Of a stretch of 64,000 bases of DNA, positions 2,880 through 52,513 are shown in pieces; positions within the stretch are counted from its first letter, which is position 1; each line of letters begins with the position of its first letter. The notes under the pieces are model-generated. The model was not told the origin of the DNA, did no database searches, and worked only from the letters and a program-made list of their open reading frames with translations. Where the stretch lies: positions 705,485 to 769,484 of the forward strand of contig MFAS01000001.1 in assembly GCA_001774685.1 (NCBI GenBank), in the 5' to 3' direction. This stretch comes from Candidatus Collierbacteria bacterium RIFOXYD2_FULL_45_13 (GTDB lineage Bacteria; Patescibacteriota; Microgenomatia; UBA1400; MFAQ01). The position numbers and the translations under genes were made by a program.

Positions 2880-4301
2880 ATGCAGTTAAGTCCGTATATT
2901 TTTCGTGGGTACGACATTCGGGGAATCGTAGACCAAGAGATAACAGATGAAGTAATGTATTTGATAGGAAGAGGATTCGCAACCTTTCTAACCGAAAGAC
3001 GAATCCGTCTTTGTTCGGTCGGCAGAGATAATCGCCAAAGCAGTACTTCATTTTCCAAAGCCTTTATTAGAGGATTGAATGACGGTGGTATTGATACCAT
3101 CGACATAGGACTTTCTTTAAGTCAAATTGTCTACTTTTCCTCATATCATTTTCTCAGCAAGGCTTGCGCGATGATCACGGCATCCCACAATCCGAAAAAC
3201 TTTAATGGTCTAAAGCTGGGAATAGGTTACTCCAAAACTATGTCAGGAACAGAAATACAAGAGCTTAGGCAAATTATCGAAAGCGGACGATTTTCCATTG
3301 GCTATGGCCGCTCGTTATCACAAAACATTTTCCTCCCATACCAAAAACACCTACAACAATATTTCAAACTCAAGAAAAAATGGCGAGTTGTCGTGGATAC
3401 TCTAAATACCTCATCCGGATGTTTCTACCCCCAAATTTTCCGTAAGGCCGGATGTAAGGTGATAACCCTACACGAGCGACTTGACAGTCATTTTCCCAAT
3501 GGCACAGATCCCACAGACACAAAGGTCTTAACCGATCTAGGAAAAAAGGTTGTCCGAGAGAAAGCCGATATCGGTTTTGCTTTTGATGCCGACGGAGACC
3601 GAATGGCTGTCGTGGACGAGAATGGTAAGCTTCACTGGATGGACATAATTGTTGCCCTCTTTGCCATCGATATTTTGGAAAACATACCAGGAGCAACCAT
3701 TATCTACAACAACCTGTGCTCCAAATCTGTCTCTGAAACTATTCATAGACTTGGAGGTAATCCCCTAATGTGGAAAACTGGGCATTCGTTTATCAAAGCC
3801 AAAATACAGGAAACCGGAGCCATGCTTGGCGGTGAATTGTCGGGTCACATCTTTTTTATGGACAATTTTTTTGGACACGACGATGCGGCTTATGCTTGCC
3901 TTAGACTACTTTCTTTCCTGGAGAAGCATGGCGAGACCCTTTCAGAGGCAACTTCATCCTTTGAAAGTTACCTTGGTAGTCCGGAAATTAAACTTGGAGT
4001 GGCAGATGAAATAAAATTTACTTTGGTGGAAAAGCAACTGAGGCATGATCTCTCCACTTCCTGGCCAGACGCAAAGATCAACGATCTGGATGGTATTCGA
4101 ATCGATAGCGAAGAGATGATGGCTGTCGTCAGGGCTTCACAAAACGGACCGTATATCACGGTTAGATTTGAAGGTAGAAGCGAGAAGCTCTACAATGAAG
4201 TCAGAGACAAATTAAAAAGAATACTCACGGCATACCCTGAAATCGACTGGCAGGACTCCATAAACGGTTACGCCTTAAATAATAAAAATGAACTATCTTG
4301 A
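2880..4301 (+). CDS. phosphoglucomutase/phosphomannomutase paralog
   Basis: 473 aa with TASHNP and DADGDR motifs. It is clearly paralogous to the divergent upstream gene, and only 39 bp separate the two start codons. Confidence 0.85.
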   Translation: MQLSPYIFRGYDIRGIVDQEITDEVMYLIGRGFATFLTERRIRLCSVGRDNRQSSTSFSKAFIRGLNDGGIDTIDIGLSLSQIVYFSSYHFLSKACAMITASHNPKNFNGLKLGIGYSKTMSGTEIQELRQIIESGRFSIGYGRSLSQNIFLPYQKHLQQYFKLKKKWRVVVDTLNTSSGCFYPQIFRKAGCKVITLHERLDSHFPNGTDPTDTKVLTDLGKKVVREKADIGFAFDADGDRMAVVDENGKLHWMDIIVALFAIDILENIPGATIIYNNLCSKSVSETIHRLGGNPLMWKTGHSFIKAKIQETGAMLGGELSGHIFFMDNFFGHDDAAYACLRLLSFLEKHGETLSEATSSFESYLGSPEIKLGVADEIKFTLVEKQLRHDLSTSWPDAKINDLDGIRIDSEEMMAVVRASQNGPYITVRFEGRSEKLYNEVRDKLKRILTAYPEIDWQDSINGYALNNKNELS

Positions 4302-12495: not shown

Positions 12496-14547
12496 ATGGA
12501 CTTTCAACTAGAATCGACCTACCGACCTACCGGAGATCAGCCCAATGCTATCGAAAAACTGGCCATCTCTATCGATCAGCAAAATCCTCACCAAACCTTG
12601 GTGGGAGTTACCGGTAGTGGTAAAACCTTTACGATTGCCAACGTCATCCAAAAAACTCAGCTCCCGACTCTGGTCATGTGCCACAACAAAACCCTGGCAT
12701 CACAGCTATACCAAGAGTTCAGAGACTTCTTTCCCCACAATGCCGTCTCATATTTTGTTTCCTACTACGATTACTACCAGCCGGAAGCCTACATTCCCCA
12801 AACCGACACCTATATCGAAAAAGAAGCTGATATCAATCCGGAGATCGACAAATTCCGCCTAACTACTACGGCCAACCTACTATCACGCCCCGATAGTATT
12901 GTGGTTGCCTCCGTTTCGTGTATTTACAATATCGGCTCACCTCTTGACCAGGAAAAGAACTTGTTGCCTCTGGCCAAAGGACAGGTAATCTCTCGGGATA
13001 CCGTCCTCATGCGCCTGTCTGACCTTCAATACACCAGAACAAATTCTGAACTGACTCGGGGTATGTACCGCGCCGTCGGCAGTACCGTCCAGCTTTTTCC
13101 CTCCTACAAAGATATCATCATTTCCATGAATTTCAGTGGTAGCTCGCTGGAAAATATTGAAATTCTCGATCCGATGAACTTCACCAGGATCGACGATGAA
13201 GACCTAGACAATACCGGCTTTATCACCATTCATCCCGCCAAACTGTTTATCACCAACCCTAAAACCCAGGGCGATGCTGTTGCCAATATAAGAAAAGACT
13301 TGGAAACCCAGGTGAAAGCATTTAAAGATGCCGGTAAGATTATTGAAGCCCATCGGATCGAACAAAAGGTTAATTACGATCTCTCCATGCTCGAAGAGGT
13401 GGGCTATGTCAGCGGCATCGAAAATTATTCCCGCTACTTTGATGGCCGCGTACCGGGTTCTGCCCCATATTCCCTGTTTGAATATTTTCATTACAACGCC
13501 AAGAAATTTAACAAACCCGGTTTCCTAACCGTCATCGACGAATCCCATATTTCTCTGCCTCAAGTCAGAGGGATGTACAACGGTGATCAAGCCCGTAAAG
13601 ACAACCTAATCAATTTTGGTTTCCGTCTCCCCAGTGCCAAAGACAACCGTCCCCTAACCTACACCGAGTGGCAATCCAGAACTCCGATCAAACTCTACTG
13701 CTCCGCCACTCCCACCGAACACGAACTATCGCTCTCGCGTGGAAGCAAGATCCCCACAGTTGCGGAGCAACTTATCCGTCCCACCGGACTCCTAGATCCA
13801 CAAATACAGGTTTTCCCTGCCAAAGGCCAGATCGATCACCTGACTCAAGAAGTCATCAAAAGAACGGCCAAGGGCGAAAGAACTTTGATACTTACGATGA
13901 CCAAGAGAATGGCCGAGGATCTTTCCGATCACCTTAAAGAAAAATATCAATTGAAGGTTGAGTATCTTCACTCGGATATACATACAATTGACCGTGCCGA
14001 TATCTTGGACAAGCTACGCTTGGGCGACTTCGACTGTCTCGTCGGTATCAATCTCTTGCGCGAAGGACTTGATCTACCGGAAGTCTCATTGGTGGCCATT
14101 CTGGATGCCGATAAAGAAGGTTTCTTGCGCACTTCGACAGCACTCATTCAAACCATGGGCCGCGCCGCCCGTCACGTCAACGGTGAGGTCTATCTATATG
14201 CCGACCGCATCTCCGATTCCATGAAAATCGCCATGGAAGAAACTCTTCGCCGGCGGAAAATTCAGCTGGATTACAACACCAAGCACGGCATTACTCCACA
14301 GGGGATAGTCAAGCCAATCCGCGACCGATTATTTAAGGCCGAAAGCCAAACGCCAGCTCCCAGAATCAAAGAACTGGCCGAGCACGGCTGGAAAGAGATT
14401 GATGATATCAATCCGGAAGCCCTCACTCCTCAGAAGAAGAAAATCCTCGTCGTCAAACTAAAAAAAATGATGAACCAAGCAGCCAACTCCTGGAACTTCG
14501 AACTCGCCGCCCGCTACCGCGACACCATTCGAAAATTGGGGCAATAA
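12496..14547 (+). CDS. uvrB: excinuclease ABC subunit B
   Basis: 683 aa with the helicase motifs GVTGSGKT and DESH, and a C-terminal UVR domain (ELAARYRD). Confidence 0.95.
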   Translation: MDFQLESTYRPTGDQPNAIEKLAISIDQQNPHQTLVGVTGSGKTFTIANVIQKTQLPTLVMCHNKTLASQLYQEFRDFFPHNAVSYFVSYYDYYQPEAYIPQTDTYIEKEADINPEIDKFRLTTTANLLSRPDSIVVASVSCIYNIGSPLDQEKNLLPLAKGQVISRDTVLMRLSDLQYTRTNSELTRGMYRAVGSTVQLFPSYKDIIISMNFSGSSLENIEILDPMNFTRIDDEDLDNTGFITIHPAKLFITNPKTQGDAVANIRKDLETQVKAFKDAGKIIEAHRIEQKVNYDLSMLEEVGYVSGIENYSRYFDGRVPGSAPYSLFEYFHYNAKKFNKPGFLTVIDESHISLPQVRGMYNGDQARKDNLINFGFRLPSAKDNRPLTYTEWQSRTPIKLYCSATPTEHELSLSRGSKIPTVAEQLIRPTGLLDPQIQVFPAKGQIDHLTQEVIKRTAKGERTLILTMTKRMAEDLSDHLKEKYQLKVEYLHSDIHTIDRADILDKLRLGDFDCLVGINLLREGLDLPEVSLVAILDADKEGFLRTSTALIQTMGRAARHVNGEVYLYADRISDSMKIAMEETLRRRKIQLDYNTKHGITPQGIVKPIRDRLFKAESQTPAPRIKELAEHGWKEIDDINPEALTPQKKKILVVKLKKMMNQAANSWNFELAARYRDTIRKLGQ

Positions 14548-15165: not shown

Positions 15166-15714
15166 ATGGACGAAGCAAAATTGGTGAGTAGTACTTGGGT
15201 TGAAAAAGGTGTGACTATGAAGTTTACCTGGTATCCCGGCGATAATCTGGAAAGGTTTCAACCATTCAATCAGGTATACGGTGTCGTCTTTAATTCAGAT
15301 GGTCAGATGCTTATTCAAAGAAGGGAGTTAAGACCTTGGTGCCTGGCCGGAGGTACTGTCGAAGAAGGGGAGACAGCCGAACAAGCTCTCAGACGAGAAC
15401 TAATTGAAGAAGCCGATGTCACCATCAAAAATCTCATCTTACTCGGTGGTCAAAGAGTGCAATTTCCCGGAGGTCACAACCCGAATCCGACCAAACGCTT
15501 TACTGGCGATGATTTTTATCAACTCCGTTATTACTGTGAAGTTGATGAGGTTCTACCTCAAACACCGGACCCCGATCACGATATCATCAACGAACGGCTC
15601 TTTGTTCCTCAAACAGAAATAAACAAATACCTGGGCTGGGGTGCCACGGGACAAGTGATCTTTGATCAAGCCATCGCTCTTTTTCATCAACTCCACCCTG
15701 CTATACTAAATTAA
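15166..15714 (+). CDS. NUDIX hydrolase (paralog A)
   Basis: Nudix box GGTVEEGETAEQALRRELIEEADV, matching G-x5-E-x7-REUxEE. Confidence 0.8.
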   Translation: MDEAKLVSSTWVEKGVTMKFTWYPGDNLERFQPFNQVYGVVFNSDGQMLIQRRELRPWCLAGGTVEEGETAEQALRRELIEEADVTIKNLILLGGQRVQFPGGHNPNPTKRFTGDDFYQLRYYCEVDEVLPQTPDPDHDIINERLFVPQTEINKYLGWGATGQVIFDQAIALFHQLHPAILN

Positions 15715-16488: not shown

Positions 16489-17232
16489 TTATTTCGTGAT
16501 TACTTTTGTTGCTTTTATTAAGTAAAACTTAGGCTTCATGAAAGCTTCGTAATAATCTTTTAATCCACTCCTCTCTGCTTCCTCGTCTGGTTTCATGTCT
16601 AAGTACTCAGTTATATATAGATTATTCTGAACGAGGGCGCCAACTAAAGTTTGGAAAGTATGGTGATACTGAATTTGTTTAAGGTTAAGAGGAGCCCATT
16701 CTCTTTCAAATTTCCCTTCTTCAAAATAGTTCCCAAGTAGAAATGCTTGTGGTTCTGTTCCTTTGACCTTTGTAGTCAAAAAAGAATATGGAACATGGCC
16801 TGAAAAAAGAAAGCTACCACCGGGCTTTAATACTCGGCAAACTTCAGAAAACGCTTTCTTTAAATCGGGAAGGTAGTCAATCACGAGTCCCGAAAACACA
16901 TAGTCGAAACTTGAATTTTGATATGGTAATTTCTCAACAGATCCAACCTTGAATTCAACATTTGGCAATTCTCTTTCTGCAATCTCAATTAACTTCTCAC
17001 TTTTATCAATACCAGATACTTTTGCTCCCAATCTAACAAATTCTTTTGTATATCTACCACTACCACAGCCTAAATCCAAGACATTCTTATCTTTTAAGTC
17101 CTGACTATTTAAAAATCTAATCGTATGAGGATATTCCAGCCATTTATTCCAGAAGTTATGACTGTCATCCATGTAGTTATGGTAGCTACCAGCAAACTGG
17201 TCGTAAGATGTTTTCACTTTTAAATTATTCAT
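16489..17232 (-). CDS. class I SAM-dependent methyltransferase
   Basis: Motif I VLDLGCGSGRYT with an acidic residue after beta-2 (GIDKSE). Confidence 0.8.
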   Translation of the reverse strand: MNNLKVKTSYDQFAGSYHNYMDDSHNFWNKWLEYPHTIRFLNSQDLKDKNVLDLGCGSGRYTKEFVRLGAKVSGIDKSEKLIEIAERELPNVEFKVGSVEKLPYQNSSFDYVFSGLVIDYLPDLKKAFSEVCRVLKPGGSFLFSGHVPYSFLTTKVKGTEPQAFLLGNYFEEGKFEREWAPLNLKQIQYHHTFQTLVGALVQNNLYITEYLDMKPDEEAERSGLKDYYEAFMKPKFYLIKATKVITK

Positions 17233-42264: not shown

Positions 42265-42347
42265 TCGAGTTTTCTCTTCTCCCTACAAGATACTTGTGCT
42301 ATACTACAAAGTGTACTATCAACACTTTGTACCTTAAAAGGAGAACT

Positions 42348-43298
42348 ATGAAGATTCTTAACCTTGATCAAGCAAAATGGATCACCAAGTTGGCTGTTAC
42401 CAAGCTGGCTAATTACCTCGAGGAGAACAATATTCACCATATTGTTCTCGGTGTTTCCGGTGGACTAGACTCCGCTGTCATGGCCGCCCTGGGACTTAGA
42501 GCGATTCAAAATCTGAGATCCAGGGGTTACGAATGCGGCTACACCTTCGACTTTATTGGTATCGAAAGCAATCGAAGTGACCTGAAAAAGGCCAGGGAAC
42601 TTTCCCAGGAACTGGGTTTCGTACTGAATGAGTTTGACTACACTGATTGGTATCGCCAATCACCTATTCGCCAGCAGGTGCACAGCACTTCACCTCGATT
42701 GCGGGTGGCTAATGGCAATCTCAAATGTCGGATTCGCCTGCTGCATCTCTACGACCGTGCTCAGCTTTTTGGCGGTATCGTTCTTGATACCGACGACCTG
42801 TCCGAACTTCTCATGGGGTTCTGGACCAAACATGGTGATGTGGGGGACGTCAAGGTGCTTCAGTATTTAACCAAGGAAGAAGTGCGGGATCTCGGTGAGG
42901 TCTGGGGGGTTACTGCAGAAATCTTGGAGTCTGCCCCAGGCGATGGTCTCGGTGTCACCGATACCAACCAAGCCAAAGATCAGCTCAAAATGGATTATTT
43001 GAAAACCGACTATGTCATGAGCCGCCTCATCGGATGCGGCTTAGACTACAACGGCGACATGTCACAGCTGTCGAAACCCATGATCATTTCCACCATCAAG
43101 CAAATTGCCAAGGAAATTAACGAGCCGATCGAAAATATCTTCCATGTTGCCAGACAGTCATTAAGAACCGCCTTCAAACGAAGATATGGCGACGACGTGG
43201 CTATTCTCCTCGAAGACCGTCACGAGATGGGGCTTCCAGAATTGGGAGAGCTTGCTTTCAATGAAGTCTATCTCCAGGCCATTACTGGTTCCGTCTAA
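42348..43298 (+). CDS. nadE: NH3-dependent NAD+ synthetase
   Basis: PP-loop LGVSGGLDSAV, with an aaaaggag Shine-Dalgarno before the ATG at 42348. The listed upstream extension is not supported. Confidence 0.75.
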   Translation: MKILNLDQAKWITKLAVTKLANYLEENNIHHIVLGVSGGLDSAVMAALGLRAIQNLRSRGYECGYTFDFIGIESNRSDLKKARELSQELGFVLNEFDYTDWYRQSPIRQQVHSTSPRLRVANGNLKCRIRLLHLYDRAQLFGGIVLDTDDLSELLMGFWTKHGDVGDVKVLQYLTKEEVRDLGEVWGVTAEILESAPGDGLGVTDTNQAKDQLKMDYLKTDYVMSRLIGCGLDYNGDMSQLSKPMIISTIKQIAKEINEPIENIFHVARQSLRTAFKRRYGDDVAILLEDRHEMGLPELGELAFNEVYLQAITGSV

Positions 43299-43308
43299 AG
43301 AATATCTC

Positions 43309-43336
43309 AAAACCACCCCTCGGGGTGGTTTTCTTT
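43309..43336 (+). terminator. Rho-independent terminator after nadE
   Basis: Hairpin ccacccc-tcg-gggtgg followed by ttttctttt. Confidence 0.7.
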
Positions 43337-43337
43337 T

Positions 43338-43355
43338 GTGACTCGGGGCGGACTC
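43338..43355 (-). repeat. 18-nt direct repeat of the tRNA-Arg(TCT) 3' end (att-like)
   Basis: gtgactcggggcggactc is identical to 43475-43492. Confidence 0.85.
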
Positions 43356-43475
43356 CTCTCGGTCACCACCTGCTGGTGGTGCCTCAAGACCCGGCTCAGC
43401 GCCGTCGCGCTTCTGCCATCCTCGCTCGCCCAAAATAACATTAAAAATCTCCCCACAAGGGAGAGATTTTCAATG

Positions 43476-43549
43476 TGACTCGGGGCGGACTCGGACCGCC
43501 GACCTACTGCTTAGAAGGCAGTCGCTCTATCCAGCTGAGCTACCGAGTC
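43476..43549 (-). tRNA. tRNA-Arg(TCT)
   Basis: Acceptor GACTCGG/CCGAGTC, D-arm AGCTCAGCTGGATAGAGC, anticodon stem ACTGC/GCAGT with loop CTTCTAA, and T-stem GGCGG/CCGCC. Confidence 0.8.
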
Positions 43550-43554
43550 AGGTG

Positions 43555-43638
43555 TGCCGGGGGCGGGAATCGGACCCGCACTCCTTTAGAGGGAACGGGA
43601 TTTTAAGTCCCGCGTGGCTACCATTTCACCACCCCGGC
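43555..43638 (-). tRNA. tRNA-Leu(TAA)
   Basis: Acceptor GCCGGGG/CCCCGGC, anticodon loop CTTAAAA, a long variable arm and T-stem GCGGG/CCCGC. Confidence 0.8.
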
Positions 43639-43675
43639 CTAGGCATGTCTATTTTAACTCAAAAAGAACGGAATA

Positions 43676-44011
43676 ATGTTAAACTATCTTATGAAATTTA
43701 GCCTTCGTCTCCTTTACCTTTATCTCTTTTCCTTTGTAGGTCTGCTCATTACTGTCATCGGCAGTATACAAATTATCGATCTCGGCCTAAAAACTTACGT
43801 CTTCAAGGTATCTGAATACTCTTATTACCCCGAACCGATAGCATCTCCAGATGGTAAATCCACCGGTATTTCAGTCGAAGAACAACAGAAGCGAAACGAA
43901 GTCGAACAGGCCAACCAGCGCAAACGCCAACTCTCCACCTCCCTCTCCATGATTCTTGTCGGAGCACCACTTTACCTCTACCACTGGAAAACCATCAAGA
44001 GAGAGAACTAA
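43676..44011 (+). CDS. small membrane protein
   Basis: 111 aa with two TM helices. Confidence 0.45.
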   Translation: MLNYLMKFSLRLLYLYLFSFVGLLITVIGSIQIIDLGLKTYVFKVSEYSYYPEPIASPDGKSTGISVEEQQKRNEVEQANQRKRQLSTSLSMILVGAPLYLYHWKTIKREN

Positions 44012-44029
44012 TCTTAGATCTGTCCAAAT

Positions 44030-44060
44030 ATGAAAATCCCCGCTATACGGCGGGGACTTT
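44030..44060. terminator. terminator hairpin (bidirectional context)
   Basis: ccccgc-tatacg-gcgggg followed by acttttt. Confidence 0.65.
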
Positions 44061-44462
44061 TTCGTGTCTGTGAAAGTTGAAAGTCGCTTCAGCGAGAACC
44101 CAAGGGTAAGGCGTGCTTCCGCTAAAGGCAGGATCCTGCGCCTTACAGAGCTCAATGGCGAGTGCGTGAATCGCCAGGTGGCAGCTATAACAGACACACA
44201 CCGCATCCGCCCAGTACCTAAAGCCAAATGACTTGAATTTATCTACCGGGATGAGGTCGCCTACCCTATAAACTGAACCAGCCGGTGCGTCGGTAACTTT
44301 GTACGCATATTTTTCCGGATAAACACCTGGTACCAGTATCAAGTGTAAACCTGTTCCGGAGTGAAATGCCCGGTATTCACGGATCCCAAATTTCTTACCG
44401 CAGCAAAAGCAACGAGGGCTGACCCTCCTTAGTTCACTGGTAATGCTCGTTGGGTATGGCAT
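44043..44462 (-). CDS. hypothetical Cys-rich (zinc-finger-like) protein
   Basis: 139 aa with CFCCGKK and CVCYSCHLAIH clusters. It could be an HNH-like or zinc-ribbon fold, which is inference only. The true start is probably internal because the 3' end overlaps a terminator. Confidence 0.3.
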   Translation of the reverse strand: MPYPTSITSELRRVSPRCFCCGKKFGIREYRAFHSGTGLHLILVPGVYPEKYAYKVTDAPAGSVYRVGDLIPVDKFKSFGFRYWADAVCVCYSCHLAIHALAIELCKAQDPAFSGSTPYPWVLAEATFNFHRHEKVPAV

Positions 44463-44644
44463 TTAACCCTCCTTTGTCAAAGTTTTTCCTATAATACAGC
44501 ATCGCTCCCCAAAACACAAGCTATAGGACCGTTCTGGTATCTGCATCAGAGCTGGAAATACGAAGTGGCTCGGACAGAATTTAGGGAGGTGAAAGAAATT
44601 GCCATGAGCTAATAAAACAACCCCTGCTCAGGCCTTTCGCTTGT

Positions 44645-47251
44645 TTATACTTGCCTTTTTCGCCAAAGGGAGAACAAGATAGAAACCAGAAGGGAAAGGA
44701 CAACTGTGGCAAGAACCAAAGAGACTGGATTCTTATAGATCGGAGTTTTGCTTTCCTCCGTTACCCGAATATCAAAGTTGAATTGTTTGGTATTGTCTCC
44801 TTCGAGGGTGACTTTTTGTTCTCTGGTAAAGTTGGCGTAGGCTATTTTGATCAAGTGGTTTCCTCCGGGAACGTTATGGAAAAGGGCGATTCCCTGCTTG
44901 TCGGTGTAGCTGGTTTGGATGTCGGAATGAATTTCTACTCTGGCATTAATGATCGGTTGATTTTGCTTACTAATGACCTTGACCTGGACAGTATAACCTT
45001 GCTGTTGGACCTGTTGCTTCTCTTCCTCAGACTGAACCGGAATTTGTTCTTGGTTAGTGATTTCGGTTTGTAAGTTTCCCTGAGTCTGATAGTTAACACC
45101 TGAAGCAGCCGAACTATAGTTAAGGGAAAGATAAAAGACTGGGTAATTGTAGCTATTACCTACCTGATCTTTCAAGCTAAGATTGGTTTGGTAGTATCCG
45201 TCGATTAATGGATAGGGAACAGTGATATAGAAACGGGCATATTTTTCATTAAGAGGTTCATCTTTGATGTCGGTTAAAGAATATTCTTTGGTCAGATGAT
45301 CAATAAAATCGCCTCGACTATCTTTTCTTTTCAGTGTTAGAGTTAGGGTTAGGGGGCCGGAACAAACTTTGTCAAAAGTATCCTTGGTATCATTAGCATT
45401 GGTTTTTGTAGAGCCTTGGTAGGGATCAGAGGCTTTACCAGAAAAAGATGGTGTTCGGTTGGTAACATTAAGTTTATAAACCTGACCTTGTGCAACAGTC
45501 GAAACATTGGCAACTGCCAGTTCAGAGATAGAAGGATTAGTTTTATCGAGATAAAAGTCTTTGGATTCTTCTTTGCTGTTGCCGGCATTATCATAAGCAA
45601 TTACTTTCCAGGAGTGCTTGCCCTCGGTTAGTTCAGCAGAGTCAAGGCCTTTGAAATAGACCCTGATCTGGTCGTTGGTTGAGTCAGAATCATTTTCGTT
45701 GGTAAATTCTACTTTAACACTGGAATCATCCTTCCAAACATAAGCTGAGGATCCGTTGCCAGAAGCCGGAATGCCGGTAGTAGACCAATTCTGGTTTTTG
45801 CCGTCATCCAGAAAAACCGAATAAGAACTGATACCGGCAGTAGCATCAGTGGCTTTTTTGAAAACTAAAGTTGGTCTGGTAAAGTCTTTGGTATAACCGG
45901 TGGGAGAATCCAAAGTCAGACTAATCGGAACGGTGGTGTCGATGGTAAAACTATCAGTTGAAGCATTGGCGTTACTCGTGGTATTGGAGTTGGAATCAGT
46001 AGCCCGTACATAGATCGTGTGGGCTCCGTCAGCTAGAGCTGGAGAAACGGTGCAGGTAAAAGCCTCGGAGGCCTCATCAAAAGTGCCATCGTCGGCCGTG
46101 CAGGCCGTCCAACTACCGGTGGTTCCGTCCATTTGATATTCAACGGAACTGACTGTACCTTCATCCTCAGTGGCTGTTCCTGTGATGGCTGGTGTGGCAT
46201 CAGAAGTTGGATCTGGAGAGAAAGCGGAAAGAGAAATTGAAGGCGCGGCGCTATCCGGGGTCGGAGTGTAATAGACTTTTCGGGTTCTGGACCCCGTATC
46301 TCCGCCAATCAACCACATCTGGCTATCATAGACGACGGAAGAATGGGTATAAGTGGCTACCGGCAAAGCGTCGGTGCCCGCCTCTGTCCAGGTAATACCA
46401 TCAGCTGAGGAGTAGACTCTTCGGGACCTAGCAAATGAAGTCGTAGCTCCTCCAATCACCCACATTTTGCTATCAAAAACGACTGCAGCACTCCATCCAG
46501 TAACCACCGGCAAAGCATTGGTGCCTGCTTCTGTCCAGGTAATCCCATCACTAGAGTAGTAGACTTTTCTGACGAGACCCCCAGCGTATCCTCCAATCAC
46601 CCACATTTTGCTATCAAAGACGACCGAAGAATGGTTATAAGTGGCTACCGGCAAAGCATTGGTGCCTGCTTCTGTCCAGGTAATCCCATCACTAGAGTAG
46701 TAGACTTTTCGGGTTGCGGCAGGAACTGACCCCCCTATCACCCACATTTTGCTATCGAAAACGACCGAAGAATGACCTTCAGTACGCACCGGCAAAGCGT
46801 CGGTGCCCGCCTCTGTCCAGGTAATACCATCGGTAGAGTAGTAGACTTTTCTTTTTATTGCGTCTACGCCCCCGGCCCCAGTATTTCCGCCTATCACCCA
46901 CATCTTGCTATCAAAGACTACAGAAGTATGATTGTAAGTACCCACCGGCAAAGCGTCGGTGCCCGCCTCTGTCCAGGTAATACCATCGGTAGAGTAGTAG
47001 ACTTTTCGGGTTGCGCTCCCCGTATTTCCTCCAATCACCCACATTTTGCTATTGAAAACGATGGAAGAAAGATAGGATGTGGCTACTGGCAAGGCGTCAG
47101 TTCCCGCTTCGACCCAAGAGGAGCCGTCAGGAAGAGCCAGAACTGTTTTGGTTACCAGTGGATTAAACAGAAAAGAGATAAGAAAGCAACTCAAGAGAAC
47201 TATTCTAGATAAGATTTTTTTGATATTAAAGATTTTCAAAAACTTATTCAA
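44645..47251 (-). CDS. cell-surface protein: signal peptide, six or seven Kelch-like beta-propeller repeats, Ig-like domains and a C-terminal TM anchor
   Basis: 868 aa. A roughly 49-aa repeat (YYS.DGITWTEAGT.ALPV......SSVVFDSKMWVIGG) occurs six or more times and is encoded by near-identical 147-bp DNA units. The C-terminal hydrophobic segment is followed by RKRQV. Confidence 0.7.
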   Translation of the reverse strand: MNKFLKIFNIKKILSRIVLLSCFLISFLFNPLVTKTVLALPDGSSWVEAGTDALPVATSYLSSIVFNSKMWVIGGNTGSATRKVYYSTDGITWTEAGTDALPVGTYNHTSVVFDSKMWVIGGNTGAGGVDAIKRKVYYSTDGITWTEAGTDALPVRTEGHSSVVFDSKMWVIGGSVPAATRKVYYSSDGITWTEAGTNALPVATYNHSSVVFDSKMWVIGGYAGGLVRKVYYSSDGITWTEAGTNALPVVTGWSAAVVFDSKMWVIGGATTSFARSRRVYSSADGITWTEAGTDALPVATYTHSSVVYDSQMWLIGGDTGSRTRKVYYTPTPDSAAPSISLSAFSPDPTSDATPAITGTATEDEGTVSSVEYQMDGTTGSWTACTADDGTFDEASEAFTCTVSPALADGAHTIYVRATDSNSNTTSNANASTDSFTIDTTVPISLTLDSPTGYTKDFTRPTLVFKKATDATAGISSYSVFLDDGKNQNWSTTGIPASGNGSSAYVWKDDSSVKVEFTNENDSDSTNDQIRVYFKGLDSAELTEGKHSWKVIAYDNAGNSKEESKDFYLDKTNPSISELAVANVSTVAQGQVYKLNVTNRTPSFSGKASDPYQGSTKTNANDTKDTFDKVCSGPLTLTLTLKRKDSRGDFIDHLTKEYSLTDIKDEPLNEKYARFYITVPYPLIDGYYQTNLSLKDQVGNSYNYPVFYLSLNYSSAASGVNYQTQGNLQTEITNQEQIPVQSEEEKQQVQQQGYTVQVKVISKQNQPIINARVEIHSDIQTSYTDKQGIALFHNVPGGNHLIKIAYANFTREQKVTLEGDNTKQFNFDIRVTEESKTPIYKNPVSLVLATVVLSLLVSILFSLWRKRQV

Positions 47252-47322
47252 AGTATATTTAGTGTATCAAGCGTGTTACACAATTGCAACATATATTACA
47301 GTTAGTATATTCCCATTATTGG

Positions 47323-49773
47323 CTATTTAAATATACCAACAATTAAATTACATATTTTCGAAATTATATCCTGTGTTTTCGAAAAGATTGTACTCTGGTT
47401 ATTTGATAACACAGGCGCTACAACCGAGGTAACAGGGGTTGCTTCGGGAACATCGGTATCTTCGGTCTGTAAAGGGGTAACCTCTGGATTTGTTGTATAA
47501 GACCCAGAACTATAACTTAGATAAAAAGGGCTCATGGTTAATTTGTTATTTGACAAGTCAGTTACCTCAATGACAACTTTATACAAACCATTAACCAGTG
47601 GCTTTGACGGGGTCAAACTAAAGGTAGTGTACTTTGTTAAACTATCACTCAAAATATTCGCAAGCTCAGCACTGGTCAAACTATAATCATAGTATTTTTT
47701 ATATGCGCCTTGTTTTTTAATATCTATAGATACAGTCTTTGGCCCAGAGGCCACACTCTCAAAAGTATCGGTCGTTCCATCAGAATTTGTTTTAGTGCTT
47801 CCCATGAATTTATCAAAAGCAGTGCCCGAAAAAACCGGGTTTCTGAATTGCGATTTAAGCCGGTATGTCTTGCCCGGTGTGATAGAACCGAGTCCTTGAA
47901 TGGCTAGACTTTTGATTTCTGGGTTTGTCTTGTCCAGGTAAACATTATTGGACACGACTCTTTCATTTAACTCACTGTCATAAGCCGTGACTGACCAGGA
48001 ATGGGCTCCTTCAGACAAAAAGTTTGGCTCAAAACCTTTGATTAAGACAGTTATTTCATCGTTGCCTGAGTCTGAGTCGTTTTCGTTACGATAAGTTACT
48101 TTATAGTTACTGTCATCTAAATGGACATAATCCTGTTGGCCGTTTCCGCTGGCCGGTAAACCTGAAATAACGAAGTTTCGATGTTTGTCTCTATCAAAGT
48201 TGACGGAATAAGAGGAGATACCATTGGTATCCGATGACTTATTAAAAACCAATACGGGTTTGTTGTCATTGGTATAATCGACAGGAGAAATCATCTTAAA
48301 ACTTACCGGCGGCGTAATATCCAATGTATAAGTTAACATGAAAATATCAGTTGATCCATTTGAAGTATGGGGCTCACTGTTGTTGTCGCCATTAAAATTC
48401 ATAGTGTTGGCAAACGCACCCGATACATGAAAAGTATTTGAATAAATATCAATAAATGTAGGATAATCGTAGCCTGTTCCTCCCCACGTTCTGGTCCATT
48501 GATAATTAAGGTCGCTATCATATTTCGTGAGGTATAAATCATACAAGCCGTTTGATACATGATTATCAACGCTTTCGCTTGAATCAAAATCAATGGTGTT
48601 TGAAAAAATTCCCCAAATATACAGATTATTGTTGACATCTTTAGTTATATTATAAGCCTCATCTACTCCACTTCCACCAACTGTTTTTATGGATTTGAAA
48701 TTTCCATCTAAGGATAACTCTAGAATATAAATATCAGAAGAACCGCCCACTGTTTTGTTTTGAGTTCCAGAACCTGGATCGAAATCGACAGTGGTAACGA
48801 ATATGCCCGATATCAGGATTCTATCACCAACAAAGGTAAAACCCATCGCACGATCAGTACCCGATCCGCCCCAATTTTTAACCCAAAGAAAGTTTCCGTC
48901 GGCGTCAAATTTTGAGATAAAGTTGTCGTAGCTTCCGTTTGATGTTCGATTGTCTGTACCCGATCCAGGGTCAAAATCGACGGTGTTGAAAAAATCTCCT
49001 AATAGATAAAAATTGTTGTTTGCATCAAAATAAATTTGATCGGAATAATCATGATTACTCCCTCCAAACGTTTTTGTCCAAACATGATTACCACTTAAAT
49101 CGAATTTTGTAAGAAAGATATCGTATCCGCCATTTGAAGTATGATTGTCTGTACCTGCGCCCGGATCAAAGTCTGGTGTGGAGAAAAATCTGCCATAAAC
49201 ATATATATTTGTATAATCATTATTAAAAGAAACTATTTCTGGCCTATCGTGAGAATCTCCACCCCATGTTTTGGTCCACTGATGATTACCATTTGAATCA
49301 TACTTAGTCAGGAAACCATCAAGGCCGTTTGCGGTATGATTGTCTGTACCTGCACCTGGGTCAAAATCAACAGTACTTTCGAATTCTCCAGTAACGTAAA
49401 CATTGTTGTCGGTGTCAAAAGTTAAGCTATTATAATCATCAAAAGTTCCTGCCCCCCCCCAAACCTTTGTCCATAAGTAATTACCGCCGGAATCGTATTT
49501 AGAAAGAAACATATCATATCCTCCCGCAGAAGTATAACTATCAACACCTACCGTCGGGTCAAAATCAACAGTTGTTGAAAAATAACCAAAAATATATGTG
49601 TTTCCGTCAAAATCTGTTTTTACTTTTGCCCAATCAACCCCGCTTCCACCAATTGATATGCCTGATTGATAAATTAAACCATCCACGGCTAGAATCTTTT
49701 GTGGAAACACAAACGAAAGCGAGAATATTGTTATTGATACGCAGACAGCCCTGATAAACATACGGATATTCAT
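47323..49773 (-). CDS. secreted protein with SBBP-type beta-propeller repeats and a C-terminal half paralogous to the upstream gene
   Basis: 816 aa with a signal peptide. About eight repeats of the form WTKTWGG...D......GN.YV.G.F..TVDFDPG.GTDN match the SBBP beta-propeller pattern. The C-terminal roughly 300 aa (ISSYSV...PASGNG...NENDSDS...DKTNP) aligns to the upstream protein. Confidence 0.7.
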   Translation of the reverse strand: MNIRMFIRAVCVSITIFSLSFVFPQKILAVDGLIYQSGISIGGSGVDWAKVKTDFDGNTYIFGYFSTTVDFDPTVGVDSYTSAGGYDMFLSKYDSGGNYLWTKVWGGAGTFDDYNSLTFDTDNNVYVTGEFESTVDFDPGAGTDNHTANGLDGFLTKYDSNGNHQWTKTWGGDSHDRPEIVSFNNDYTNIYVYGRFFSTPDFDPGAGTDNHTSNGGYDIFLTKFDLSGNHVWTKTFGGSNHDYSDQIYFDANNNFYLLGDFFNTVDFDPGSGTDNRTSNGSYDNFISKFDADGNFLWVKNWGGSGTDRAMGFTFVGDRILISGIFVTTVDFDPGSGTQNKTVGGSSDIYILELSLDGNFKSIKTVGGSGVDEAYNITKDVNNNLYIWGIFSNTIDFDSSESVDNHVSNGLYDLYLTKYDSDLNYQWTRTWGGTGYDYPTFIDIYSNTFHVSGAFANTMNFNGDNNSEPHTSNGSTDIFMLTYTLDITPPVSFKMISPVDYTNDNKPVLVFNKSSDTNGISSYSVNFDRDKHRNFVISGLPASGNGQQDYVHLDDSNYKVTYRNENDSDSGNDEITVLIKGFEPNFLSEGAHSWSVTAYDSELNERVVSNNVYLDKTNPEIKSLAIQGLGSITPGKTYRLKSQFRNPVFSGTAFDKFMGSTKTNSDGTTDTFESVASGPKTVSIDIKKQGAYKKYYDYSLTSAELANILSDSLTKYTTFSLTPSKPLVNGLYKVVIEVTDLSNNKLTMSPFYLSYSSGSYTTNPEVTPLQTEDTDVPEATPVTSVVAPVLSNNQSTIFSKTQDIISKICNLIVGIFK

Positions 49774-49999
49774 TCCTCTATATTATAGTTATTATAGTAA
49801 TAAAACAAATTTGTCCAATATCTGTGTTTGCATATCTCGTATTTATTCAAGACTTTTTGCGTCTGGTTGACCAAATGCATTGTCCACAACATCGTCCATC
49901 TGCTAAAGAATTGTACTCTGAAATATTCTGGCAGAGTTCAAAAATTCGCTGAAAAACAGTGATGGTTTTGAAAAATGTGACTTATTGGAGCGAATGGGG

Positions 50000-50186
50000 C
50001 CTGCCCGCCGGTAGGTGGGGGAGTCGGCCTCTTCGGTCTCGCTTACTAGCTCGCCTCTGAGCGCGCCTCGCCGCCAGTCGCGCTTCCGGCGGGATCAGCT
50101 CTCGTAAGAGCTAGTGCCGAAATATCTTTCGGCGCCGACTAGTTCACACAACAAAGTCCCCCATAAAGAGGGACTTCGTTTTATTG
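50000..50186 (-). repeat. GC-rich tRNA-flanking element downstream of tRNA-Gly(TCC)
   Basis: Hairpin aagtccc-ccataaaga-gggactt next to the tRNA. A core gaagcgcgactggcggcgaggcgcgctcagaggcgag is homologous to the cores of the other three elements. A degenerate copy of the tRNA 3' end (gtgggggagtcgg) sits at 50014-50027. GC content is visibly far above local background. Confidence 0.55.
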
Positions 50187-50257
50187 AGCGGGTGAGGGGA
50201 GTCGGACCCCTTTCATCAGCTTGGAAAGCTGAGGTAATACCGGTATACGACACCCGC
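50187..50257 (-). tRNA. tRNA-Gly(TCC)
   Basis: Perfect acceptor GCGGGTG/CACCCGC, anticodon stem TCAGC/GCTGA with loop TTTCCAA, and T-stem AGGGG/CCCCT. The T-loop is the atypical TCCGACT. Confidence 0.7.
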
Positions 50258-50261
50258 GTTG

Positions 50262-50292
50262 TAAATATTTTATCAAAAACCCCACCGGTTTG
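50262..50292 (-). terminator. Rho-independent terminator for the 50306-50635 membrane-protein gene
   Basis: Palindromic ccccacc-ggttt-ggtgggg; on the reverse strand it is followed by ttttt. Confidence 0.6.
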
Positions 50293-50305
50293 GTGGGGAA
50301 AATAT

Positions 50306-50635
50306 TTATCTGGGAGTAGAGTACTCAATTAGGAAGGAAACCAACAATAGAAACAGTGCCACATACAAGCAGGGGAGTGAGTTGGTAATGGCAACGGATC
50401 CAAGCACCATCAAACCAAATAAGAAAAAGGAACCAGGAATATCTATATATATCTTCACTCGCAATATAGCCTTAAAAATCTCGAAAAAAACCAAAATTGA
50501 TCCTCCCATGACAACAAACATCATGACCGGGAAAATATGCGGTAGAAAACCGATCCTCATCGACCCGCCCCAAAGCAAACCGCTAACAAGGGCATATAGG
50601 CAAGTTAGCAATATGAGCCAAAAACGCTTATTCAT
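50306..50635 (-). CDS. small polytopic membrane protein
   Basis: 109 aa, three or four TM helices. Confidence 0.45.
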   Translation of the reverse strand: MNKRFWLILLTCLYALVSGLLWGGSMRIGFLPHIFPVMMFVVMGGSILVFFEIFKAILRVKIYIDIPGSFFLFGLMVLGSVAITNSLPCLYVALFLLLVSFLIEYSTPR

Positions 50636-50701
50636 TGGACCTCCTAAGAATTGAAGGGTACAGTGACAAAGATATCACCAAATCCCCACCATTGTCTATT
50701 G

Positions 50702-50775
50702 TCGGGGTGGTGAGACTCGAACTCACGACCCCTGCGTCCCAAACGCAGTACTCTAGCCATCTGAGCTACACCCCG
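50702..50775 (-). tRNA. tRNA-Pro(TGG)
   Basis: Acceptor CGGGGTG/CACCCCG, anticodon stem CTGCG/CGCAG with loop TTTGGGA, and T-arm GTGAG-TTCGAGT-CTCAC. Confidence 0.8.
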
Positions 50776-50844
50776 ATAGACTGATTTTACCATTCAAAGC
50801 TCATTTTGAGGTAAAATATAGTCCTGACGGTCTAAGCCGTTTAT

Positions 50845-50918
50845 GGTGGATTTAGCTTAGTCGGTAAAGCGCCTCCCTGTGGAGGAGGAGATCGCGGGTT
50901 CGAGTCCCGTAATCCACC
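50845..50918 (+). tRNA. tRNA-His(GTG) with a genome-encoded G-1
   Basis: G-1 followed by GTGGATT/AATCCAC, discriminator C, anticodon stem CCTCC/GGAGG with loop CTGTGGA, and T-loop TTCGAGT. Confidence 0.8.
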
Positions 50919-50920
50919 CA

Positions 50921-50955
50921 AATAAATCTCTCCCTCGTGGGGAGATTTTTATTTG
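50921..50955 (+). terminator. Rho-independent terminator after tRNA-His; also the 5' part of the tRNA-flanking element
   Basis: aaatctctccc-tcgt-ggggagattt followed by ttatttgg. The hairpin is almost identical to the one next to tRNA-Arg. Confidence 0.65.
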
Positions 50956-51077
50956 GATAATAATTACGGGACTCGAGTGACGGAACCAGTTTCGTGACGA
51001 ACCTGGTGAGGCGGGTCTTGAGGCAATTTCTATTGAAATTGACCGAAAGGAGTCCCGACGTAAGGAGAGTCCCCATA

Positions 51078-51092
51078 CCCGCAATCCACCCA
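51078..51092 (+). repeat. 15-nt near-direct repeat of the tRNA-His 3' end (att-like)
   Basis: cccgcaatccaccca versus cccgtaatccaccca at 50906-50920. Confidence 0.7.
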
Positions 51093-51236
51093 CTTGATGT
51101 ATCAAAAAATAGAGGTCGATGGGGAAACTGTCGGTGGTATAGCTTTAACAGTTCAGGACGGTCTTTTTATGGTAAAATAACTATAGTTAAGGGGATAGAG
51201 TAAATATTATTACAAAACACTCTATCATACTATACT

Positions 51237-51437
51237 ATGACAGGCACAATCAAGAAAAAAACCGATAAAGGCTTTGGCTTCATTTCTAGGGAAGGAGAAG
51301 AAAAAGACCTTTTCTTCCATTCCAACGATCTGCAGGGAATTACTTTTGAGCAGATACAAGAAGGAGCTACTGTAGAATTCGATATCGAACAAGGACCAAA
51401 GGGACCGGCAGCTAAGAACGTCAAGCTGGCTCAATAA
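51237..51437 (+). CDS. cold-shock protein (CspA family)
   Basis: 66 aa; KGFGFI (RNP1) and FFHSND / VEFDIEQGPKGPAAKNV are the cold-shock-domain signature. Confidence 0.9.
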   Translation: MTGTIKKKTDKGFGFISREGEEKDLFFHSNDLQGITFEQIQEGATVEFDIEQGPKGPAAKNVKLAQ

Positions 51438-51496
51438 GCTTTTTAAAATACAAAACGGCCTTCGCAACAGCGGAGGTCTTTTTGTATTTCTCACAA

Positions 51497-52513
51497 TCAC
51501 CTTTTACTTTTTTTGCTAAGTACTCTTGCCACCCTCATTCCGAAAGTTCTAATCATGACCACTCCGATGCCCAGTACCGGGATTGCAAATACAGCCCCAA
51601 AAGCCCCGCCAAACTTAAGTCCGATTAAAAGAGATATTAGAATTATGGCAGGGTGAAGACTGAAAACTTTACCCAACAACTTCGGACCAATAACGTTAAA
51701 AACAATTTGCTGGGCAATAAACAAGATAACCCCTACCAGTAGTGCTTTTAGAGATCCGGCTAGTAAGGCCACCATCACAGGCAGCACAATCGCCAACAAA
51801 GGACCGACCAAAGGGACAATCGCGAATAGACCGGCCAGGAAAGCCACCGACGCCGAAAAACCGATTCCAAATAAATACATGACCAACCAAGTTACAATGG
51901 CAATCAAAACGCCATAGAAAAACTGGACTCTGAAAAAAGAAATAAAGGTATCACTAATCACTTTTTCTATAAATATCAATGTTTCGTGCCAAGCGTCGGG
52001 AACTAAATTAAAGAATTCTCTGTTTATCTTATTTCGATCGATAATGAAGTAAAAAGACAGGGTCAGCACGATAAAAGCAGAAAAAAAGAACTGGGCTATG
52101 GACGGAATAAGAGTGATCGAGTTTTCAATCTGGTTTAGAAGTGGCCCGTTAAGATGATTTAGTACTACCGGCGCCTCACTTAGGTATCCCGGCACCAAAC
52201 CAACCAAAGCAACGATCTGGGAAGTAATCAGTGGTATATAAACGAAACCTATCGCAACAATAAATATTGAAAGCAGCAGATAGGTGATTGTCGTCGAGAT
52301 AATCTTTGAGAACTTAAAGTATTTTTGAATCCGACTTACTACCGGGTCCAAGAGAAAACTTAAAAGCCATGAAACCAAGACAATCACAATAGTATCCGTA
52401 AAACGACCCAAAACCATTCCAACCAAGCCAAGCACGTAGCTTCCGACTGCAATAATTAACAGATAAAGTAACACCTGAATCAGGTTGTTAAATTTTTTCA
52501 TTTCCTCCAACAT
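51497..52513 (-). CDS. AI-2E family transporter (PerM/UPF0118)
   Basis: 338 aa with about eight TM helices and the conserved C-terminal GLIGAVFAIP-like segment (FGGAFGAVFAIPVLGI). Confidence 0.7.
   Translation of the reverse strand: MLEEMKKFNNLIQVLLYLLIIAVGSYVLGLVGMVLGRFTDTIVIVLVSWLLSFLLDPVVSRIQKYFKFSKIISTTITYLLLSIFIVAIGFVYIPLITSQIVALVGLVPGYLSEAPVVLNHLNGPLLNQIENSITLIPSIAQFFFSAFIVLTLSFYFIIDRNKINREFFNLVPDAWHETLIFIEKVISDTFISFFRVQFFYGVLIAIVTWLVMYLFGIGFSASVAFLAGLFAIVPLVGPLLAIVLPVMVALLAGSLKALLVGVILFIAQQIVFNVIGPKLLGKVFSLHPAIILISLLIGLKFGGAFGAVFAIPVLGIGVVMIRTFGMRVARVLSKKSKR

Follow-up and report, generated by a model that had tools for sequence, protein, structure and literature searches.

The tRNA-Arg(TCT) locus

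The window analyzed here is a 64-kb stretch of DNA from Candidatus Collierbacteria bacterium RIFOXYD2_FULL_45_13. On its minus strand lies a tRNA-Arg(TCT) gene, and 137 nt downstream of the tRNA end there is a second copy of the final 18 nt of that gene (Table 1). The repeated sequence, GTGACTCGGGGCGGACTC, runs from G57 of the T-loop to one base beyond the discriminator and occurs exactly twice in the window. Chance matches at ≤3 mismatches were rare (mean 0.01), and two matches were found in 0 of 100 shuffles.

A first-pass annotation of this DNA had reported the exact repeat together with a series of motifs, and all of these motifs sit between the two copies. Read on the minus strand, the tRNA is followed by the hairpin AAATCTCTCCCTTGTGGGGAGATTT and a T run, scored as terminator-like over 43476-43438, and then by a GC-rich core, the hairpin CACCACCAGCAGGTGGTG and the distal repeat. 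The terminator of nadE does adjoin the distal repeat, as had been claimed. It is a native bidirectional hairpin, common to nadE and to the original tRNA end, and lies in the flank, outside the element. To this description we can add a decayed antisense copy of the T-arm, a three-way junction in the core, the tRNA specificity of the antisense stretch and a fourth copy at tRNA-Gly(TCC). The terminator-like hairpin matches that of the tRNA-His copy in 27 of 28 nt. A likeness of GCGAGCGAG to the parvovirus Rep-binding element is confined to the Arg(TCT) copy of the window and was set aside as coincidence.

A 90-aa open reading frame had been placed entirely within the element and judged non-coding. 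The second part of that claim stands: gene calling in eight assemblies of this species places no gene over the element, and the frame is not conserved, being broken by a 1-nt indel in the P2a hairpin loop in the orthologous copy of locus L020 and in L021 too. The first part needs correction, because the last 138 nt of the frame run antisense through the end of nadE.

Table 1. Positions of the tRNA-Arg(TCT) unit, its sister copies and other features (window coordinates unless a locus is named)
Feature	Position	Strand	Remarks
Host tRNA-Arg(TCT)	43475-43549	-	ARAGORN; Rfam tRNA 67.8 bits
Proximal repeat	43475-43492	-	final 18 nt of the tRNA
Terminator-like hairpin, left module	43438-43474	-	A-rich 5' arm, T-rich 3' arm
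AT spacer	43432-43437	-	TATTTT, from the sequence
Guide, decayed antisense T-arm stretch	43419-43431	-	GGGCGAGCGAGGA
Three-way-junction core	43356-43418	-	covariance model R1, 77.6 bits; pair counts; RNAalifold; fold
P2	43415-43417 with 43393-43395	-	GGC/GCC
P2a hairpin	43398-43411	-	
P3a	43386-43388 with 43356-43358	-	CTT/GAG
P3b		-	GG/CC
P3c hairpin	43364-43381	-	
Distal repeat	43338-43355	-	exact copy of the tRNA-Arg(TCT) 3' end
Native terminator hairpin	43309-43332	.	outside the element
nadE	42294-43298		
90-aa reading frame	43161-43433		non-coding
Sister copy behind tRNA-Leu(CAG) (35140-35221)	35222-35362	+	
Leu(CAG) hairpin	35231-35257	+	
Leu(CAG) guide	35267-35279	+	GGGGATTTGAACC; 13/13 antisense to T-arm
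Leu(CAG) core	35280-35340	+	
Leu(CAG) distal repeat	35342-35362	+	
Sister copy behind tRNA-His (50846-50919)	50920-51092	+	
His hairpin	50924-50948	+	
His guide	50963-50976	+	ATTACGGGACTCGA; 14/14 antisense to T-arm
His core	50978-51049	+	
His distal repeat	51050-51057 and 51082-51092	+	interrupted by a 24-nt insert
Degenerate copy behind tRNA-Gly(TCC) (50186-50257)	49990-50185	-	core 50030-50091
GC-rich inserts in distal repeats	~50000-50020 (Gly-TCC); 51058-51081 (His)		also L017 Leu-CAA
Orphan units	L013 18324-18470; L021 8325-8540		
tRNA-Trp with element-type hairpin	L024 301-420		
Partial tRNA-Arg(TCT) copies with AT-rich insert	L014 ~13640-14276; L013 ~15430-15608; L028 ~3230-3430		also L022
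Hairpin-rich segment behind tRNA-Gln	L026 ~3232-3350; L036 ~3700-3777		
Recombinase, LAGLIDADG-like and repeat features	L037 1-734, 4355-6214, 6115-6196, 6795-7388, ~16700-16823		
Low-GC segment	15900-26100		
Kelch/beta-propeller gene	44645-47251	-	

A family of inserts behind tRNA genes

The window holds three clear copies of the element, behind tRNA-Leu(CAG), tRNA-Arg(TCT) and tRNA-His, and the degenerate fourth behind tRNA-Gly(TCC), which has additional hairpins ahead of its core and a GC-rich insert interrupting its distal repeat. Related loci, designated L013 and so forth, were obtained by fetching relatives via TypA and by scanning metagenome contigs for the element hairpin, and units were located with a script that seeks downstream copies of each tRNA's tail. 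The first-pass annotation had spoken of a repeated tRNA-flanking element, a reading that hinged on homologous cores existing outside the window; such cores are present in L013-L031 and L036.

The host tRNAs recovered by the script are Leu-CAG, Leu-TAA, Leu-CAA, Arg-TCT, His, Gly-TCC, Gly-GCC, Val-TAC, Val-CAC, Gln-TTG and Tyr-GTA, and direct reading of L023 added Lys-CTT, which gives at least 12 tRNA species in the loci searched. The family is exclusive to tRNAs. A covariance model of the core (R1) found 33 matches in 210 kb, and all 33 were on the tRNA strand, behind a tRNA or a decayed tRNA. Most of them (25) begin 49-65 nt past the 3' end of a tRNA, and the remaining eight comprise second tandem units, one copy with additional hairpins ahead of the core, contig-edge cases and copies beside decayed tRNAs. 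Collierbacteria, members of the candidate phyla radiation, thus carry a family of tiny, protein-less inserts behind their tRNA genes, of which we found no description in the literature.

A unit is 120-150 bp long. On the tRNA strand it consists of a terminator-like hairpin, an AT spacer, the antisense stretch that we call the guide, the three-way junction of about 63 nt, and the distal tRNA repeat, which extends from T-loop position 54-57 to the tRNA 3' end. Every complete unit is flanked by such a tRNA-end repeat, of 14-21 nt in the sister copies and 44 nt in L031. Being bracketed by two copies of the tRNA end, the unit leaves the tRNA intact and provides it with a new terminator. To the left of the distal repeat, ACCGARAG is conserved along with P3a, regardless of the tRNA. 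A 21-nt hairpin core recurs behind different tRNAs across genomes (L013, L014 and others) and is absent elsewhere in the window, which indicates that the hairpin travels with the unit. Units can also outlive their host tRNA copy, since at two orphan units, in L013 and L021, the upstream tRNA-Gly(TCC) has decayed beyond recognition.

Some variants were seen as well. Small GC-rich inserts split the distal repeat between its T-stem and acceptor parts in three copies (Gly-TCC, His and the Leu-CAA copy of L017), and GGCGGGCAGGCC is common to two of these. In L024, tRNA-Trp is followed by an element-type hairpin, ATATCTCTCCCTTGTGGAGAGATAT, with neither guide nor core; the hairpin is either all that remains of a unit or a terminator of a shared type.

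A compensated three-way junction

The core is built from the helix P2 (3 bp), the hairpin P2a, with the loop GAC(N)G or GURAC, and the helix P3a (3-4 bp). A GGA/GA internal loop lies between P2 and P2a, a G-rich linker precedes P3a, and a GA/GA(A) loop follows it. The distal arm continues with P3b (GG/CC), a bulged A and then the hairpin P3c, whose loop is often AGCA. The near-invariant letters sit in two tandem-GA loops, both of which are found in the Arg(TCT) core, and these loops make sense on the tRNA-sense strand only.

The structure is conserved by compensation. Across 20 cores, 89.5% of the cells were paired, against 65.5% in partner shuffles (0/500), and sliding the partners by 1-3 columns lowered pairing to 29-43%. 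Changes on both sides were found in 17 of 20 pairs; the middle pair of P2, for example, occurs as G-C, C-G, U-A, A-U and G-U. RNAalifold, run unguided, returned the same helices, with 14 of 16 pairs compensated, and single sequences folded better than shuffles, with z values of -2.5 to -3.9 as RNA and -1.9 to -4.5 as DNA. Such compensation requires that the functional form be single-stranded. Wobble pairs do not distinguish between RNA and ssDNA here, as G.U (7 cells) is not clearly commoner than A.C (4-7 cells).

The tandem-GA loops were also considered as parts of hammerhead, HDV-like or hairpin ribozymes. These readings were rejected, because by eye the conserved nucleotides and the helix order do not fit, and Rfam was silent. 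The P2a hairpin is recurrently truncated, and we had considered a nick site at this position; the L023 junction, however, is accounted for by a 5-nt microhomology (TCGTA) with the native flank as seen in L014, and is a secondary deletion.

The guide follows its own tRNA

The guide is an 11-14 nt stretch that runs antisense to tRNA positions ~53-66, which comprise the T-loop and the T-stem's 3' strand, and it tracks the tRNA beside which it lies. Guide scores against the own tRNA averaged 9.24, compared with 6.07 ± 0.32 when permuted (0/20000 permutations). When scored against all tRNAs in the set, the own tRNA was strictly the best match in 15 of 23 elements. Even alleles are followed. In the T-loop, this applies to position 59 (Leu-CAG, Gln), 55 (Arg, Gly) and 57 (Gly), and in the T-stem of Gln, CCTAG is accompanied by the guide CTAGG and CCCTG by the guide CAGGG. 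To be this specific, the guide must pair with the T-arm, either in the tRNA gene or in its transcript.

For the guides of 18 of 24 units, the intact T-arm is a better partner than the distal repeat is, because the guide also covers positions 53-56, which are missing from the repeat. The edge of the repeat is therefore located 2-3 bp within the junction-facing end of the guide-target duplex, and the guide straddles the insertion point, covering 2-3 nt 5' of it and ~10 nt 3' of it. In the predicted fold of the L020 tRNA together with its element, the 137 nt behave as a T-loop insertion: the proximal T-arm is paired with the guide, and the distal repeat is taken up by the 5' strands of the tRNA. 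The guide of the Arg(TCT) copy in the window has decayed, its complementarity to the tRNA being down to five bases, GGGCG; the orthologous guide of L020, GGCGGAATCGGA, still matches the tRNA in 11 of 12 positions.

Allele combinations give mixed indications on where the repeat comes from. In L026, one T-loop allele is common to the proximal repeat and its guide and another to the distal repeat and an older guide, which would favour a repeat brought along by the element. The guides of L029 and of the His copy of L014 fit another tRNA or allele better, yet both repeats match the local tRNA, a pattern that would favour a repeat derived from the target.

Occupancy and turnover

Occupancy varies among relatives. 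The first-pass annotation had suggested looking for occupied and empty versions of the Arg(TCT) site, and both exist: besides the window, the site is occupied in L020 and L021, and it is empty in L026, L034, L035, L036 and L037. Conversely, Val-TAC, Gln-TTG and Leu-TAA are empty in the window and each occupied in at least one relative (L013, L014, L027/L031, L037). Two of the relatives carried no unit at the tRNAs read, namely L034 (TypA 76% identical, syntenic, 11 tRNAs) and L035 (TypA 86% identical, five tRNAs). At tRNA-Val, the flank past the distal repeat of L013 is homologous to the L026 flank directly behind the empty-site tRNA, so that the difference amounts to a clean insertion of 124 nt, including one repeat.

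L036 might be taken for a clean empty allele of the Arg(TCT) site, and we rejected it as such. It is 99.9% identical to the window over window positions 43467-52419 (L036 10263-19216), and this identity runs rightward through the tRNA from 8 nt beyond the tRNA-Arg 3' end (43475). On the nadE side, L036 cannot be aligned to the window (TypA ~84% identical), and its tRNA-Arg is directly followed by a different terminator. From this alignment, we place a recombination breakpoint between the two genomes at the tRNA-Arg end. The empty site coincides with this breakpoint and is therefore not a simple indel.

Near-identical cores occur at different tRNAs in one genome. For example, the Val and Gln cores of L013 are 93% identical, with a compensated swap in P2, whereas cores at the same tRNA in different genomes are only 46-55% (Gln) or 49% (Val) identical. 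As judged from these identities, the cores probably spread within a genome and are replaced at a site. The Arg subfamily is an exception, with 82-89% identity at the same tRNA in three genomes (window, L020, L021) and compensated P3c changes among the three copies. Units are also stacked in tandem with the distal unit truncated or decayed, at Leu-TAA and Gln of L013, Lys of L023, Leu-CAG of L026 and Gln of L031. Within the species of the window, occupancy is identical in eight strains, which means that no movement is visible at that time scale; neither an excised form nor an empty/occupied polymorphism was found among these strains.

Other observations at these loci

A second, unrelated type of tRNA-linked insert was noticed in several loci. 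Here, partial tRNA-Arg(TCT) copies lie beside the real gene, and their D-loop or anticodon loop holds an AT-rich insert of ~110-130 nt (..CAGCTGGATA|ACAGCTTGCTC...GGAAATA|GCGCGACTGCCTTCTAAGCAG..). A different GC-rich, hairpin-rich segment (AGAAAGGGATTCCCCGYCCGTTTTCGGGGTAG...), which does not match R1, is found behind tRNA-Gln in L026 and L036. In L037, tRNA-Leu(CAG) is adjoined by two large genes for serine recombinases, a LAGLIDADG-like reading frame lies between a 5' fragment of tRNA-Leu(GAG) and the full tRNA-Leu(GAG), and three 41-nt tandem repeats are located behind tRNA-Gly(TCC). Within the window, a segment with a GC content of 0.35-0.39, compared with ~0.44, encodes four NUDIX genes, glycosyltransferases and methyltransferases, and may be a horizontally acquired sugar-modification island. 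An 868-aa Kelch/beta-propeller protein is encoded with six internal DNA repeats of 141 nt, which are 60-89% mutually identical.

Searches for genes, promoters and known families

No unit contains a reading frame. Neither a recombinase, nor a transposase, nor a reverse transcriptase was found by Pfam among the scanned window ORFs and the genes called around the element, and there is no integrase inside or adjoining any of the 33 copies. A Y1 HUH transposase (TnpA/RAYT) was likewise not seen in the 64-kb window, part of a 1.09-Mb contig, and the 20-kb loci. In the window copies, no sigma-70-like promoter precedes the core and a terminator-like hairpin does, so that expression as RNA is conjectural.

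Rfam 15, searched at permissive thresholds, gave no match over the core, be it to a ribozyme, an intron or another RNA family. A hit to whalefall-1 reached 16 bits, compared with a gathering score of 37; it falls on the hairpin only, is absent in L014 and is attributed to chance. The same applies to microRNA matches, which concern the terminator hairpin only and do not recur in other copies. Scans of viral contigs for the core and hairpin, and blastn against phages and plasmids, gave nothing relevant. A scan for the core pattern in a genome collection that does not contain the source genome produced two matches, in a gammaproteobacterium and in Streptomyces, with no tRNA near, which we regard as chance.

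Interpretation and alternatives

Taken together, the compensated structure, the guide specificity and the turnover point to a mobile element that is non-autonomous and depends for its movement on an enzyme not encoded in the unit. Our working reading, in which belief and doubt are about evenly balanced, is that the Arg(TCT) copy is a somewhat decayed member of a family of such insertion elements at tRNA 3' ends. The element would act in single-stranded form, either as RNA or as ssDNA, with the sequence of the tRNA-sense strand. Its guide would pair across the T-loop insertion point and thereby select or align the target, possibly placing the insertion point at the three-way junction, an arrangement that the predicted fold of the L020 tRNA and element fits. 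Strand transfer would then be carried out by an enzyme encoded elsewhere in the genome.

The Arg subfamily does not sit easily with a mobile element, as its conservation at the same tRNA and its compensated P3c also fit a function for the host. The units could then be resident RNAs in the tRNA 3' trailer, which pair with the T-arm of the neighbouring tRNA in cis or in trans. They would be made by read-through or from an unrecognised promoter of their own, would serve, for example, in processing, quality control or sequestration of the tRNA, and would only rarely be duplicated between tRNA loci. We consider this unlikely, even if the compensatory changes among same-tRNA copies in three genomes, the co-variation of the guide with T-arm alleles, the L020 co-transcript fold, with the guide on the proximal T-arm and the distal repeat on the tRNA 5' strands, and the fixed occupancy in eight strains are all in line with it. 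A resident function is difficult to reconcile with the absence of the element in close relatives that have the same tRNAs (L034, L035), with the decay and truncation of distal tandem units, with the loss of the guide in the Arg(TCT) copy of the window, and with near-identical cores at different tRNAs of one genome. The position of a terminator-like hairpin between the tRNA and the core also argues against it.

Returning to insertion, the movement could have been that of a larger element. The repeats would then be the attL and attR sites left by a tyrosine (or serine) integrase, and the unit the scar or satellite of a tRNA-integrating island whose interior was lost, either inert or, like CIMEs, mobilised by an integrase that a full-length relative supplies in trans. 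The extent of the repeat, from the T-loop to the tRNA end and present at both ends of the unit, resembles the T-loop integration class, tandem accretion is present, and the repeat and guide alleles of L026 are as expected for an element that brings its own tRNA end. Furthermore, Collierbacteria do have recombinase islands at tRNAs, as illustrated by the serine recombinase genes at tRNA-Leu in L037. This origin is nevertheless still less probable in our estimation. None of the 33 copies has an integrase in or beside it, and phage, plasmid and viral collections contain no match. The interior is a compensated, conserved junction, which protein-binding att arms do not need, and the ACCGARAG left of the distal repeat is constant across tRNAs and, unlike an element-side core site, does not imitate the T-stem 5' strand.

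It is quite improbable that the units are intron-like elements acting at the RNA level, inserted into the T-loop by guide-directed cleavage and ligation and fixed via reverse transcription and recombination, with the internal copy of the tRNA 3' end and the terminator making splicing unnecessary: the guide spans the insertion point, the tRNA-element fold treats the 137 nt as a T-loop insertion and tandem-GA loops are common among RNA motifs, but known self-splicing introns are all much larger than the core, which has no match to a ribozyme or intron family in Rfam and no excess of wobble pairs, and no reverse transcriptase was seen. A MITE derived from a DDE-transposase element can be dismissed, as there are neither shared terminal inverted repeats nor a fixed short target duplication, the sole inverted relation being that of guide and T-arm, which differs per tRNA, and the repeat length varies.

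More tentatively, the insertion elements may represent a new class of mobile element, in which a single-stranded guide reads the T-arm, the junction recruits an unlinked enzyme and the tRNA end is restored. With a few base changes, guided insertion of this kind could be redirected to any tRNA. An enzyme partner, if there is one, should be findable by comparing the gene content of syntenic carriers (window, L013, L014) with that of non-carriers (L034, L035). If instead the resident, T-arm-pairing RNA is true, the units would constitute a new kind of tRNA-linked regulator.

Genomes of the candidate phyla radiation are ~1 Mb in size and generally regarded as poor in mobile DNA. In the carrier genomes, units are located at about one third of the tRNA genes read, for example at four of 11 in the window and five of 12 in L014. 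Matching between insert and target is the logic of programmable insertion, as in group II introns, the IS110 bridge RNA and the IS200/IS605 guides, and the present family is a compact case with natural replicates of this matching, comprising at least 12 tRNA targets and a guide that follows alleles. There is also a practical side for annotation: the units yield partial tRNA copies and GC-rich pseudo-ORFs, which are prone to be miscalled by pipelines.

Comparison with known systems

Functional tRNA 3' trailers, such as the 3'ETS-leuZ sponge RNA of E. coli, and the theta/HDV-like ribozymes behind phage tRNAs are also structured segments on the same strand behind a tRNA. The Collierbacteria units differ from them by the terminator hairpin before the core, the tRNA-end repeat, the lack of an Rfam match and the variable presence. 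Integron attC sites and the attP of CTX phage are folded single-strand sites that recombine through host or unlinked enzymes (XerCD for the latter); they likewise conserve structure over sequence and have no enzyme in the element, and a stem formed by guide and repeat would mimic a duplex target in a comparable way. In contrast to these, the units have no dif-like or attC-like motif, target the T-arm of tRNAs and carry neither a cassette nor a phage genome.

The bridge (seeker) RNA of IS110/IS1111 and the EBS-IBS interactions of group II introns share with the units a site match that is encoded by the element and pairs across the insertion point. Unlike those systems, a unit has no gene for a DEDD or serine recombinase or for an intron-encoded protein. 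Its RNA would offer a single three-way junction with one target-matching stretch rather than a two-loop bridge, its core is far smaller than a group II intron, and its flanking repeat is long.

REPINs/PATEs and IS200/IS605 elements are similarly small and non-autonomous, have compensated hairpins, are assumed to rely on an enzyme in trans and carry a target-complementary internal sequence adjoining the hairpin; IS200/IS605 elements move as a single strand, by "peel and paste", their cleavage and target sites being recognised through pairing with such a guide. Their hairpin is simple, whereas the units have a three-way junction. The IS200/IS605 guide measures 4-5 nt, and insertion takes place beside a 4-5-nt target and leaves no flanking repeat, compared with a guide of 11-14 nt and a repeat of 18-21 nt in the units, and no Y1/HUH gene was present in the loci read.

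The T-loop, as reportedly described by Williams in 2002, is a classic class of tRNA integration site. Islands and prophages that integrate into tRNAs by a tyrosine integrase with a T-loop attB, and the protein-less CIMEs derived from such systems, resemble the units in having direct repeats that extend from the T-loop to the tRNA 3' end, an intact tRNA, tandem arrays and presence or absence among relatives. They differ in size and content, as the islands comprise kilobases and an integrase, and the units 120-150 bp with no integrase. Furthermore, the units contain a compensated junction and a T-arm antisense stretch, and use at least 12 tRNA species within one narrow clade. The geometry of the repeats is thus that of a T-loop-class tRNA integration site, and everything between the repeats is different.
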